Positions 5,135 through 24,859 of a stretch of DNA of 64,000 bases are shown in pieces (within the stretch, counting starts at the first letter, position 1; every line of letters begins with the position of its first letter). A program made the position numbers and the translations under genes. The stretch covers positions 2,475 to 66,474 of the forward strand of contig JBEKGY010000018.1 in assembly GCA_050012555.1 (NCBI GenBank), given 5' to 3'. The notes below the pieces were generated by a model. The model ran no database searches. It saw only the letters and a program-made list of their open reading frames with translations, and was not told where the DNA came from. Source of the DNA: Terracidiphilus sp. (lineage in GTDB: Bacteria; Acidobacteriota; Terriglobia; Terriglobales; Acidobacteriaceae).

Positions 5135-5176
5135 AGCCTACCACGAATACTGCACTTTACGGTGATATATATCACA
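5135..5176 (-). promoter_or_regulatory. Predicted Crp/Fnr-activated promoter (box 5161-5176, extended -10 5143-5135)
   Basis: GGTGA-tatata-TCACA at 5161-5176; minus strand TG-G-TAGGCT with hexamer at -12..-7 relative to the ATG at 5128. Confidence 0.6.
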
Positions 5177-5490
5177 TAACAGCTTTGAAGAGGTAGACTC
5201 CCGGCCCAGCTTGCGTCCGCTTCAACGGCGGTATTCTCGACCGAACGAATCACCCAGCTATCTCTCGCCATAATACCGATCTGCTGTTAAATCAATCAGA
5301 TGGGCAGAGTATCGAGTTTGGGTGTTTGTGTGTAAAGCTGGATCGTCACTTCCGACTGTAGATGTTTTTGTAGATGGTGTTGCATCCAAGATTCGGCGAG
5401 AAACCCAATAATGACGCACCTTCCGGTGCCAGGACACCTGGGCCAATACCAGGGGGTCGGGCTCGCATGTCTGTAAACTATTGAAAACAA

Positions 5491-5567
5491 TGGTCGGGGA
5501 GAGAGGATTTGAACCTCCGACCCCCTGGTCCCGAACCAGGTGCTCTACCAGGCTGAGCCACTCCCCG
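5491..5567 (-). tRNA. tRNA-Pro(CGG)
   Basis: CGGGGAGTGGCTCAGCCTGGTAGAGCACCTGGTTCGGGACCAGGGGGTCGGAGGTTCAAATCCTCTCTCCCCGACCA, 77 nt, anticodon CGG, encoded CCA. Confidence 0.97.
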
Positions 5568-5736
5568 AACTTGGGTTGCAGGAGCGTATCGTTGGGGCGC
5601 GGCCTGGCGCGTTGTGCCCCTTGAGTGCGCTTCGACCAGTGTAGCAGAAACCCGGGAGTTGCAGGGCAGGGGAGTTGCCGGCGCAGGCCTCGCATGCGCC
5701 CGCCCTTATTCTCAAGTTCCTTGCCCTGAAAATGCG

Positions 5737-6366
5737 TTAGTCGCTCTTCGTCGAGTCATTATCCAGCCCGGCGGGCAAATCCAGCGTCACCAGGGCAAAG
5801 CGCGTCTTGCCGTCCTTAGGCTCCTCAAAGCCCACAATGTGCTGGTGCCGCCGGGAGCCGGCCTTCAGCTCCGGGCCGTTCTTGTTGGAACCATAATCGC
5901 CGCGGTTGATGCGCACATTGTTGCCATTGTTGTCGTCGCAGGTCAACCCTTCGGAGGTCCTCGTCGGGGTTCCCACCGGCGCATTGCCCTGGCAGGTAAT
6001 CACGTCGCCGTAGCGGCCCAGCGCCTTCTTGTAAAAGGCGGTCACCTGCTCCTGGGTGTCCGAGGTAGTATAGGAAACCGCCCGCACCCGCAGCTCCCAA
6101 TCGCCAAAGCCAAGCCGCAGGTCCGCCGACTTGTGCTTGTCGTCGTCCGCCCTCTGCTGCGCGCCCGGGTACACCGGCAACCCAAGGTCCGCGGCCGAAG
6201 TCTGGTTGGTATTTACATGAATGCCGCCAAAGGGAGTATCCACCTGGACGTTCTTATCCTCGCCGTTGGCGTTCTTGTCGACATGCACACTGCATCCCGC
6301 AATCCCGGCCGCCAAAGCCAGGCTCAGCGTCAAAGTTATCGCTTCCAGTGTTCTGTTCCGCACCAT
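5737..6366 (-). CDS. Hypothetical lipoprotein
   Basis: Lipobox IAGC after hydrophobic stretch; LGLPVYPGA motif; GAGGG upstream. Confidence 0.8.
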   Translation of the reverse strand: MVRNRTLEAITLTLSLALAAGIAGCSVHVDKNANGEDKNVQVDTPFGGIHVNTNQTSAADLGLPVYPGAQQRADDDKHKSADLRLGFGDWELRVRAVSYTTSDTQEQVTAFYKKALGRYGDVITCQGNAPVGTPTRTSEGLTCDDNNGNNVRINRGDYGSNKNGPELKAGSRRHQHIVGFEEPKDGKTRFALVTLDLPAGLDNDSTKSD

Positions 6367-6432
6367 GGCAATCGCCCTCTTGCCCTGTTATACGTCCGCA
6401 CAGATGGAAAGGTTCCGGAAATCGGCTTGGGA

Positions 6433-6540
6433 TCAGTGCGTTCGCGGCCCGTCTTCCTTGCTGCCGGTGGCGAACAGAATCGCCACTACAAAGACAACCA
6501 CAATGACGGAAACGACGAAGAATGGGGAAGAGATGTCCAT
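6433..6540 (-). CDS. 35-aa single-pass membrane peptide (below ORF-track cutoff)
   Basis: AAGGAG-N8-ATG; MDISSPFFVVSVIVVVFVVAILFATGSKEDGPRTH*. Confidence 0.7.
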   Translation of the reverse strand: MDISSPFFVVSVIVVVFVVAILFATGSKEDGPRTH

Positions 6541-6571
6541 TGTGCAGACTCCTTACCGCTTCCAGAGTACC

Positions 6572-6602
6572 AAAAAAGAGGCTCCCTTTCGGAAGCCCCT
6601 TT
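6572..6602 (-). terminator. Intrinsic terminator after the GH38 gene
   Basis: Minus strand GGGGCTTCC-GAAA-GGGAGCCTC followed by TTTTTT. Confidence 0.85.
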
Positions 6603-22764: not shown

Positions 22765-22835
22765 TCAGCCGGCGTATTGGCTTCAACCTCCCGGAGAATT
22801 GATAGAGCCAGCCGCCCCACCGGTTGCTCTTGTCG

Positions 22836-23399
22836 CTACTTTGAGAACAGGGGAATGTGGAATGGCATCTCGGCATTGGACTGCTTCCTGGTCTTGGCGT
22901 TCGAGTCCTGGCGGAGCACGGTACGCTGGGAGTTGATGCACAGCCAGACGCCGTGTGCGCGCTCGTAGACATGCGTAAAGATGCCCTTTTCATCCACCTG
23001 GGCCGAATTCACCTTGCGGCGCAGCGTATAGGTCCCATTGGCGACGGCTATGTCGCCCAGCATGCGCACCGTAATCACCCGCTGATAGAGGTGGATGGTC
23101 TTATCCTCGCCGGTAATCATCGAGGCTACCTGCTGATTGCGGGTAGTGATGTCACCTATGGCGGAAACATCTACAAATAAAGGAGATAGTACCAGCTCCA
23201 GGCCGTATTGGTCACGCTGGTTGACGGCCTCGGACCAGGCGTCCTCAACCTTCTGGAACTCCCGGATCGCCGGGCTTTCGGCAGACGTGACGTTGGGCTG
23301 GGCCGAATCCGAGACCGGAGCCGGGCTCTGGGCGGCAGCAGCGCAGCATAAGAGAAGAAAAGCAGAAACACAAGCCACAAATCGGAACATACGCAGCAT
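22836..23399 (-). CDS. Secreted NTF2-like (DUF4440/SnoaL-type) protein
   Basis: Signal peptide; VRMLGDIAVANG...FTHVYER...WLCINSQ pattern. Confidence 0.75.
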   Translation of the reverse strand: MLRMFRFVACVSAFLLLCCAAAAQSPAPVSDSAQPNVTSAESPAIREFQKVEDAWSEAVNQRDQYGLELVLSPLFVDVSAIGDITTRNQQVASMITGEDKTIHLYQRVITVRMLGDIAVANGTYTLRRKVNSAQVDEKGIFTHVYERAHGVWLCINSQRTVLRQDSNAKTRKQSNAEMPFHIPLFSK

Positions 23400-23490
23400 A
23401 AACTCCCAACAAAGATGAAAGCTCTACCAAGATGATATCTCTTGGACTCCGGAGGAAGGCCGGACGGAAGCGGAAAAATGGAAGCAGGCC

Positions 23491-24243
23491 CTAGAGCAGC
23501 GTTTGCAACTGCTCCGGCTGGTGAAGGGTGACCAGGGAGTCTTTGATCGAGATCCAGCCGTCCTTGCGGAACTGGCCGAGGGTGCGGGTGACGGTTTCGC
23601 GGGTGGTGCAGGTCATCGAGGCCATCTCCTCGTGGGTCAGCAGCAGCGGGAAGCGGTAGCCGCCGCCGTCCAGGTGTTCGCCGATCTGATGAGCCAACTC
23701 GAGGAGCAGCCGTCCCAGGCGGGCGGCCACGGTCTCGGCCAGCGCGATGCGGCAGGCGTCCTGCAGCGCGAAGCGGTACTCCTGGCAGATGCACTGGACG
23801 GCGCGCATCTGCGCCTCCTTGTGGCTGCGCAGGAAGCTGAGAAACCTGTCGCGCTCGACGGGGCGGAGCTGGGCGCTGGTCAATGACTCGGCGGAGACCT
23901 CGTAGACGCCGTGGGAGAGAACCGCATACAGGCCCAGCATGGAGCCGGGTCCGGCGACGCGGACGATCATCTGACGATCCTCAAGGCGTCCGGCGGTGAG
24001 CTTGAGATAGCCGCCACAGATCAGATAGAGGCAGCGGGCATCCTCGCCCTGAGTAAACAGGGAAGCCTGCGCGGGAAGGGCGATGGTGCTGGTGGCCAGT
24101 TCAAGATCGGCCAGAACGGCGCTGCCCAGAGAGCAGAACCATCCGGGGCGGCGATTGCCGCAAGCCGCACAGCCCACTGGAACCGGCCGCGCAACGTGCT
24201 TTTTCCGCGCATGAACTTCTGCCGAGATCGCTGTGTCCACCAT
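23491..24243 (-). CDS. Crp/Fnr-family regulator with N-terminal Cys cluster
   Basis: CAAC-x8-C N-terminus, LFTQGE cNMP-like fold, HTH LTHEEMASMTCTTRETVTRTL. Confidence 0.93.
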   Translation of the reverse strand: MVDTAISAEVHARKKHVARPVPVGCAACGNRRPGWFCSLGSAVLADLELATSTIALPAQASLFTQGEDARCLYLICGGYLKLTAGRLEDRQMIVRVAGPGSMLGLYAVLSHGVYEVSAESLTSAQLRPVERDRFLSFLRSHKEAQMRAVQCICQEYRFALQDACRIALAETVAARLGRLLLELAHQIGEHLDGGGYRFPLLLTHEEMASMTCTTRETVTRTLGQFRKDGWISIKDSLVTLHQPEQLQTLL

Positions 24244-24404
24244 GGTCTTGCCCCTTCTTACGCCGATTCAGGACGTACACCTTTGCCTCTTGCTGAGCCC
24301 TGTGCAACGCTACAAGGGCTAAAGCTGGGGTGAAAATCCCCTGGACCTCCCGGAAAAGAAATTCTTACTTCACCAAATTTTGCAGGAGCAGCGACCGCTA
24401 TGGA

Positions 24405-24420
24405 TGTGATGGGCCTCACG
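24405..24420. promoter_or_regulatory. CRP-type box upstream of the crp/fnr gene (possible autoregulation)
   Basis: TGTGA-tgggcc-TCACG (9/10). Confidence 0.55.
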
Positions 24421-24789
24421 TCTATGTGGCAATGCCGAGGGTCGCAAACTCCGCCCTGGCTGGTCAAAATCGGATCGCACGATCTACGCCATCGGTCTGA
24501 GCGGGAAAGCTATTTTGGGTCATCTGGAAGCCAAAAAGCGCCAGAGTGGGCCGTCAATCCGATTTTGGGTAAGGTGTTCGGTTTTATACAGCTGCAAGGC
24601 CATAATCCTGATGTTCTGCTCAGAGAGCGCTCCCTCCATTCCGATAATCCCCGTCTCCAGGAGGGAGGCTTGAGCGTGTGTGCCAGAGTGGTGGATTGCT
24701 CTTGGCCGCGCTTGAGGATTGCCCGTGGGCAGGGGTCTGCATCACTTTCGGCGAGGATATTCCGGTCCGGAATACATCTCCCCAACGAA

Positions 24790-24859
24790 TGTGATGAACG
24801 TCACCGTTTGGTACAAAATTGCGCGTTAATATTCAGCGAATGAAGTGATGCTCCGCACA
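24790..24859 (+). promoter_or_regulatory. Predicted class II Crp/Fnr promoter of the cytochrome operon
   Basis: TGTGA-tgaacg-TCACC 24790-24805; -10 TAATAT 24827-24832 puts the box centre at -41.5; second box AGTGA-tgctcc-GCACA 24844-24859. Confidence 0.65.

Follow-up and report, generated by a model that had tools for sequence, protein, structure and literature searches.

A genome-wide TGTGA-N6-TCACA box set in Terracidiphilus, probably read by four-cysteine Crp/Fnr regulators

Intergenic palindromes of the form TGTGA-N6-TCACA lie ahead of genes for a predicted outer-membrane electron conduit, a likely heme enzyme, a universal stress protein (usp), a CusA-type pump and a Crp/Fnr regulator in a 64,000-nucleotide stretch of Terracidiphilus sp. 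DNA (contig JBEKGY010000018.1, assembly GCA_050012555.1), hereafter the window. Our analysis leaves hardly any doubt that these boxes are functional Crp-family sites. They belong to a conserved, genome-wide set whose likely readers are four-cysteine Crp/Fnr proteins; these would detect low oxygen with a predicted Fe-S cluster and turn on anaerobic metabolism from class II positions. A sequence-only reading of the same DNA had proposed that one redox-responsive regulator controls the conduit, its heme supply and Cu(I) export. The boxes shared by the conduit, the likely heme enzyme, usp and the CusA-type pump bear this out in part, whereas the notion of a single local regulon was given up: the window holds seven sites of a genome-wide set, and a purely local regulon is ruled out by that set and its targets.

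The box and its predicted promoters

The six boxes of the sequence-only reading were all found where it had placed them, intergenic and with zero to two mismatches, together with a seventh, at -41.5 for usp, that it had overlooked:

5161..5176, minus strand: Crp/Fnr box, predicted class II activator site of a cus-type operon; -10 TAGGCT at 5140-5135, predicted leaderless start at 5128
17621..17636, minus strand: perfect box, predicted class II site of a radical SAM gene; weak TG-n-TCTTCT element at gap 22
17795..17810, plus strand: upstream box of the usp tandem pair, at about -63.5
17817..17832, plus strand: seventh, degenerate box, 22 bp downstream of the 17795 box; -41.5 from TG-n-CAAAAT (17854-17859)
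24405..24420, minus strand: box of the regulator's own gene (regulator A), predicted class II position; nAnnnT at 24382-24377
24790..24805, plus strand: conduit operon box, class II position; -10 TAATAT at 24827-24832, predicted start about 24839
24844..24859, plus strand: weak box at about +13, a repressor-type position, 52-56 bp past the main box

Assuming a start 7 nt past the -10, the 24790 box is centred at -41.5 relative to TAATAT and the 5161 box at -40.5 relative to the extended element TGn-TAGGCT, in agreement with the earlier claims, and in the predicted class II promoters, with starts predicted from their -10s, the spacing to these hexamers fits. The usp, regulator A and radical SAM promoters would start near 17866, 24370 and 17586. 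A sigma-70 scan found no promoter at the conduit operon, as expected where the box takes the place of the -35.

At up to two mismatches the window itself contains 17 matches with 17.8 expected, a background level that favours chance matches or non-functional palindromes; therefore, the whole genome (G000 in our locus labels; 3.73 Mb, 89.5% complete) was analysed. For the same reason the 17795 and 24844 boxes, with two mismatches each, are not significant alone, although conservation in relatives backs them. Of the window boxes, four have at most one mismatch, where shuffles of its roughly 12 kb of intergenic sequence would lead one to expect 0.25; the intergenic boundaries come from a simple in-house gene caller (78% coding), which overestimates intergenic DNA. 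Genome-wide, the perfect box occurs 11 times in intergenic and never in coding DNA, and 52-53 intergenic sites have at most one mismatch, against 0-1 and 13-20, respectively, in eight dinucleotide shuffles, so that the real strong sites number roughly 35-40. The enrichment is specific to spacer 6, as each of 12 other spacers gave 8-22 such sites, and TAnnnT follows 21-22 bp behind the box in 15 of 80 box-gene orientations compared to 0.8 per gap elsewhere. A box matrix trained without the window's contig ranks the six boxes of the sequence-only reading 3 (the 17621 box), 19, 28, 40, 44 and 69 among 145 intergenic sites; because counts of this position weight matrix against shuffles are partly circular, the matrix coming from the same genome, we relied on the consensus counts. 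Such a box stands upstream of 65 of the 2916 genes. The FNR-type TTGAT-N4-ATCAA box was ruled out, as it shows no intergenic enrichment (24 intergenic and 84 coding sites, about 29 per Mb each). The comparison with shuffled DNA, one of the checks suggested in the sequence-only reading, puts the strong boxes above background genome-wide, and chance is extremely improbable, being contradicted by the genome-wide enrichment, the spacer specificity, the fixed -10 spacing and the conservation described below.

For conservation, the best 29 non-self loci were read per promoter, and the boxes recur across the genus in orthologous promoters, the second check that had been proposed. The conduit main box is followed by TAnnnT at gap 21/22 in 25 of 28 box-bearing promoters, and none of the remaining gaps between 10 and 34 shows the hexamer. 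Regulator A is encoded divergently from the decaheme gene of the conduit in 26 of 29 genus loci; in the same 26 a box faces its gene, each time with nAnnnT 21 or 22 bp behind it. Ahead of the radical SAM gene, the box was found in 28 of 29 orthologous regions and the 17795 usp box in 24 of 29, the usp tandem pair with its degenerate second box being kept in 21 of 29 relatives, several with TAATAT or TAACAT at gap 21. The weak site at about +13 scores at least 4 in 26 of 29 loci and at least 9.5 in 17; the idea that it is specific to A meets a mixed picture, since it is missing in three loci without adjacent A, and also missing or very weak in six with A. As for the cus box, 4 of 5 close orthologues have it, as do all 15 loci read in a clade with 35-45% identity and 1 of 4 more distant loci.

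Pairs of boxes with an offset of exactly 22 bp, in which the downstream box is degenerate and sits at -41.5, were observed at window 17795-17832, G000:C13:3680/3702, C3:147495 and C58:13581; genome-wide, 4 of 55 strong sites have such a tandem. Such pairs also occur ahead of crp genes in other family genomes (loci L276 and L278) and in L280.

Two candidate readers and their signal

The local regulator has the following features:

23491..24243, minus strand: Crp/Fnr regulator A; C25-x2-C28-x8-C37 plus C76, recognition helix RETVTR, no cAMP pocket

Matches over cut-off to PF00027 (sensor barrel) and PF13545 (Crp helix-turn-helix) place regulator A in the Crp/Fnr superfamily, and its helix does read RETVTR, as previously described. 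Among the eight Crp/Fnr genes of the genome, only A and a paralogue, B (G000:C58:15639-16346), have the RETV helix, in both RETVTR, and both have C-x2-C-x8-C; the two are 39% identical. Five other paralogues (G000 contigs C20, C23, C8, C17 and C48) share the helix GTTRSRVSFF. The fourth cysteine (C76 in A, C63 in B) is invariant in 26/26 A and 120/120 B sequences, the first two are missing only in truncated B records, and 35 of 44 Crp sequences from other genomes keep the four cysteines and the helix.

The RE-T-V-x-R helix and TGTGA-N6-TCACA sites are those of CRP proper (residue roles being general background), which would suit a cAMP-CRP catabolite regulon that incidentally includes respiration genes, as in Shewanella, where CRP-cAMP binds the omcA and mtrC promoters (PMC4417206); many B orthologues also carry the automatic database label cAMP receptor. 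However, the pocket residues are gone in both paralogues (G-L and Y-E in A, G-L and H-E in B, compared to GEL and PRT in M. tuberculosis CRP), the match to the cAMP receptor model NF008732 is 43 bits against a cut-off of 266, class III adenylate cyclase (PF00211) was not found in the 89.5% complete genome, and no glycoside hydrolase family matched among the 127 scanned box-neighbour proteins. Control by cAMP is thus very unlikely. Fnr and FnrL models score far below cut-off, and neither A nor B has a Bacillus-Fnr-type C-terminal three-cysteine cluster, so that the two lack the cAMP pocket of CRP proper, the TTGAT target of FNR and the C-terminal cluster of Bacillus Fnr alike. The best reading of these sequences is an Fnr-like sensor family with CRP-type specificity.

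The sequence-only reading had pointed to the 23491-24243 protein as the binder, while allowing for another paralogue; it is one of two candidate binders, given the same helix in the more conserved B and the abundance of boxes where A was not found. That A alone controls a small set made up of the conduit, its heme supply, usp and cus is favoured by its divergent position beside the decaheme gene, which recurs in three genomes of other genera, by extra invariant Cys, and by genome G008 (69% complete), in which A is present, B was not found and 7 perfect boxes occur. On the other side, a draw of 150 family genomes yielded A in just 5. In the remaining 145 the median number of perfect boxes is 10, compared to 1 for the reversed pattern, and 106 of them have five or more (the tally includes the unpublished G062 and G081; without both, the median is 11 and the count 106/143). 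Boxes at usp and at conduit or heme-enzyme promoters persist in G010 (88% complete; B present, A not found) and in G013 (100% complete; one four-cysteine member, neither an A nor a B orthologue). In addition, the gene of A itself lies behind a class II-position box, and relatives carry cus on a different contig or at a great distance. Control by A alone is therefore quite unlikely.

B is 90-97% identical in most genus members compared to 77-94% for A, and its nearest named orthologues (94-98% identical) are mostly labelled Terracidiphilus or Acidobacteriaceae. A box stands directly ahead of B in only 4 of 80 loci; the conserved one is about 2 kb upstream, ahead of usp. All eight zero-box genomes of the 150, as well as G003, have no B relative above 29% identity, and five hand-picked box-rich genomes have 3-7. 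Because boxes abound without A and zero-box genomes have no such B relatives, the sequences indicate that the box belongs to an old family, of which A is a lineage-specific member with its own gene as a target. Two readers are thus probable, with regulator A as one of them and at the same time a target, and the system probably has two tiers; we lean slightly towards B as the upper one.

In this genome a perfect box, usp, a stand-alone cNMP-domain gene and B follow one another (G000:C58:13812-16346), and another stand-alone cNMP-domain gene lies behind a perfect box at G000 C3:109536. One cluster in G013 (L289, C18:372500-378500) unites usp, a four-cysteine crp, a radical SAM homologue and the decaheme and porin genes; one box precedes usp/crp and another the radical SAM gene.

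The target scan covered 127 chosen proteins around 40 fetched regions (72 of 105, plus 55 made up of 54 of 87 and the window porin). Boxes stand ahead of PFOR, two further 2-oxoacid:ferredoxin oxidoreductases, an NfnAB-like pair and ferredoxin; of H+-PPase, PPDK, Xfp-Ack and three Pta/Ptb genes; of HypCDE, a membrane hydrogenase-like unit and an NrfD complex; and of ccsA-hemA-hemC-hemD, ccmF, FeoA, Usp genes and multihemes. This set looks like an anaerobic regulon, and its predicted content points to low oxygen and not to cAMP. Four invariant cysteines with a CxxC start suit a [4Fe-4S] site, and ligation of such a cluster by such cysteines is established chemistry of FNR-type proteins. The same regulon and readers might instead answer to nitric oxide, heme, iron, zinc or thiol redox state acting on the cysteines: the cysteine pattern is not an exact match to FNR or FnrP, FeoA and heme genes are among the targets, and HcpR of Desulfovibrio, which reads a similar box, responds to nitrosative stress. 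Given that oxygen-labile energy enzymes dominate the targets and that the cysteines suit the cluster, such another cue is unlikely. Low oxygen or redox is probably the signal, and an Fe-S cluster in the readers, predicted from the cysteines, seems reasonably probable.

Transcripts of a Bryobacteraceae metagenome-assembled genome (MAG) during oxic-anoxic cycling, in the PMC10564751 supplement (sign of change fixed by sat at -6.3, negative meaning higher in anoxia), were higher in anoxia for DmsE (-3.5), MtrC (-3.9 and -3.2), three Usp (-3.6 to -5.7), H+-PPase (-3.1) and PFOR (-1.4); a second DmsE copy (+4.2) was not significant, and phosphoketolase and hemA showed no significant change. This pattern is circumstantial support from another acidobacterial family. 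The Terracidiphilus MAGs of the same study were dropped as an expression test, their counts being sparse and mostly zeros.

Several observations weigh against the proposed low-oxygen regulon, besides the background-level count in the window. The spacing C-x2-C-x8-C is unlike that of FnrP (C14/C17/C25/C113), and the fourth cysteine is not mappable to the FNR position. Five RET-helix paralogues without the cysteine set exist in other genomes, and some readers may therefore not sense directly. G012 has both A and B, yet no box at usp or the radical SAM gene. Kin are not independent, so that the co-occurrence counts overstate. Enolase, GAPDH, ATP synthase b and several unknowns are also box-bearing, of which the glycolytic and ATP-synthase genes count against it. 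In the Bryobacteraceae MAG, CusA was higher with oxygen (+4.3, not significant), as was, significantly, a CzcA gene (PMC10564751). Finally, RNA run X1 consists of contigs mostly from relatives (155 of 234 records below 90% identity) and cannot show starts or levels.

Conduit, heme enzyme and copper pump

The genes behind the 24790 box are as follows:

24927..25904, plus strand: DmsE/MtrA-family decaheme cytochrome; TIGR03508 over cut-off, 10 CxxCH
26025..28694, plus strand: large beta-barrel, predicted MtrB-like porin; model pLDDT 59, Foldseek best match 6r2q_B
28895..29236, plus strand: monoheme cytochrome c; PF13442, 1 CxxCH
29430..30857, plus strand: membrane-anchored NapC/NirT-like multiheme cytochrome; PF03264, 5 CxxCH and 1 Cx3CH

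The barrel has no Pfam or NCBIfam match, and its low-confidence model is most similar to 6r2q_B of the Mtr complex (E 2e-10, 10% identity), above TonB-dependent barrels. An MtrA-type decaheme cytochrome beside an MtrB-type barrel, the latter from that low-confidence model, is the arrangement of an MtrCAB conduit, suggesting that 24927-30857 is a predicted outer-membrane electron conduit. As the MtrC/OmcA surface decaheme (TIGR03507) was not found in the 89.5% complete genome, the conduit is described as MtrAB/MtoAB-like, and electrons may flow through it in either direction.

The boxes at 17621 and 17795-17832 belong to the following neighbourhood:

16178..17383, minus strand: TIGR04053 radical SAM/SPASM protein, AhbD-like; 481 bits, cut-off 395
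10087..11553, minus strand: HemY/HemG-type porphyrinogen oxidase; TIGR00562 over cut-off
17885..18844, plus strand: tandem-domain universal stress protein (usp); two PF00582 domains

The radical SAM protein is below the cut-off of the AhbD model TIGR04545 (362 against 500 bits); from homology and hemY synteny we infer a heme role, likely that of an oxygen-independent coproheme decarboxylase. A ChdC-family gene is present elsewhere in the genome; Haloferax uses AhbD for anaerobic growth and ChdC for aerobic growth (PMC5746218). The earlier view that heme supply as such is under the boxes has to be narrowed, given that hemY has no box of its own in this genome; among 8 relatives, hemY comes after the radical SAM gene in 6, of which 2 have a separate hemY box, and in G013 the radical SAM gene precedes the decaheme gene. 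Between the radical SAM gene and hemY lies a gene for a 1340-aa protein with many Fn3-associated repeats (11766-15788), likely an insertion, since in 6 of 8 relatives these two genes lie next to or near each other.

The cus-type operon reads leftwards from the 5161 box:

4790..5128, minus strand: 112-aa Cys/His-rich leader open reading frame; no family match
3370..4704, minus strand: outer-membrane efflux channel (TolC/CusC-like); PF02321
1790..3373, minus strand: CusB-like adaptor with a C-terminal YtkA-like domain; PF16576, PF13115
1..1781, minus strand: CusA-type RND pump, 5' part; whole gene at G000:C18:1145-4255

A leaderless mRNA is predicted for the leader reading frame, the -10 lying 6 nt before the ATG (window 5140-5128), an arrangement kept in four close relatives, and a similar small reading frame precedes the efflux genes in 6/6 relatives read. 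The best PDB match of the pump is E. coli CusA (E 5e-280; the next family, ZneA, 2e-174), and the CusA-type Met triad (M565/M615/M664) is kept in this pump and in 6/6 relatives from both clades; Cu(I) is its presumed substrate. The adaptor ends (1790-2110) in a YtkA/FixH-like domain rich in Met, which may be a copper chaperone fused to it and replacing CusF. The pump is the least expected member of the box regulon; CusA-type pumps stand behind this box in two clades 46% identical. The co-location of cus with the conduit is not kept in the relatives compared. A tRNA-Pro gene (5491-5567) adjoins the cus promoter, and the cus block may have arrived at this site. A possible reason for co-regulation with the conduit is that copper reportedly blocks the assembly of cytochrome c (PMC4600104).

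Elsewhere in the window, a tRNA-Met gene (56048-56124) lies inside a polysaccharide cluster, and 62424-63629 encodes a rubrerythrin/ferritin-like domain fused to a VIT1 transporter, which we take to be MbfA-like.

Proposed mechanism and related systems

Taken together, the four-cysteine family would read the boxes, sense low oxygen through the predicted Fe-S cluster and activate class II promoters. B, as first tier, would turn on the genes for fermentation, hydrogenase, heme and cytochrome maturation, plus A; A, as second tier, would amplify or tune the adjacent MtrAB-like operon, perhaps via the +13 site. The AhbD-like enzyme would replace ChdC when oxygen is absent, and the Cus-type pump would be raised in advance, keeping Cu(I) from Fe-S enzymes and cytochrome c assembly.

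Parts of this logic are familiar. Similar to Bacillus/Paenibacillus Fnr (bioRxiv 10.1101/2020.01.03.894683), these would be oxygen-responsive Crp-family proteins with a TGTGA-N6-TCACA box shared by paralogues; unlike it, with a cluster on three C-terminal cysteines and an Asp, they carry N-terminal cysteines and one in the sensor barrel. Proteobacterial FNR/FnrP shares the N-terminal CxxC...C with a later fourth cysteine (PMC4771820), the anaerobic target set and, as predicted here, class II activation; here, however, the spacing is x8 and not x7, the shared fourth cysteine follows about 38 and not about 88 residues on, the helix is the CRP-type RETV and the TTGAT box is not enriched. In Rhodopseudomonas palustris, AadR-FixK control of pioABC likewise joins a decaheme-porin operon, a Crp/Fnr site at about -44.5 and a two-tier hierarchy (PMC13345007), but in another phylum; in the present case both proposed tiers have the cysteine set, and it is the local regulator that goes with the operon. 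Shewanella CRP at mtrCAB/omcA also activates a multiheme conduit through a CRP-type box, but its control is cAMP-dependent and class I (-61.5) and includes MtrC, which was not found here (PMC4417206). E. coli CusCFBA resembles the present pump in the M573/M623/M672 triad and an E625 equivalent (PMC8092243), although several transmembrane Met are replaced here. A Crp/Fnr box stands in the promoter, and no CusR-type regulator reached cut-off here. In E. coli, cus is driven by the copper-sensing CusRS.

No description of this regulon in Acidobacteria was found in the literature searched, including PMC9599518 and PMC8407424 (subscription papers and RegPrecise were outside the scope). Acidobacteria of the Terracidiphilus group occur widely in peat, and it has been proposed that they use extracellular acceptors for respiration (bioRxiv 10.64898/2026.05.27.727921); the available text of that preprint does not mention Fnr or Crp, while its supplements may describe the gene cluster. 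The regulatory logic is thus familiar but found in a bacterial group for which we met no description, and the two-reader test, the seventh box, the predicted class II promoter of A and the conserved cus link are new here.

A readable box provides predicted promoters, starts and a gene list for the oxic-anoxic switch of the Terracidiphilus group, and gives many unknown genes a likely role; the copper-pump link suggests export triggered by redox rather than metal. We tentatively put forward, as a possibility still open to considerable doubt, that Terriglobales possess their own oxygen sensor, with an N-terminal four-cysteine Fe-S site, CRP specificity and two tiers in Terracidiphilus, which would install the conduit together with advance copper export that, without a copper sensor, protects multiheme assembly. 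If this is true, the box would be a genomic marker of facultative anaerobiosis in a dominant soil and peat group.

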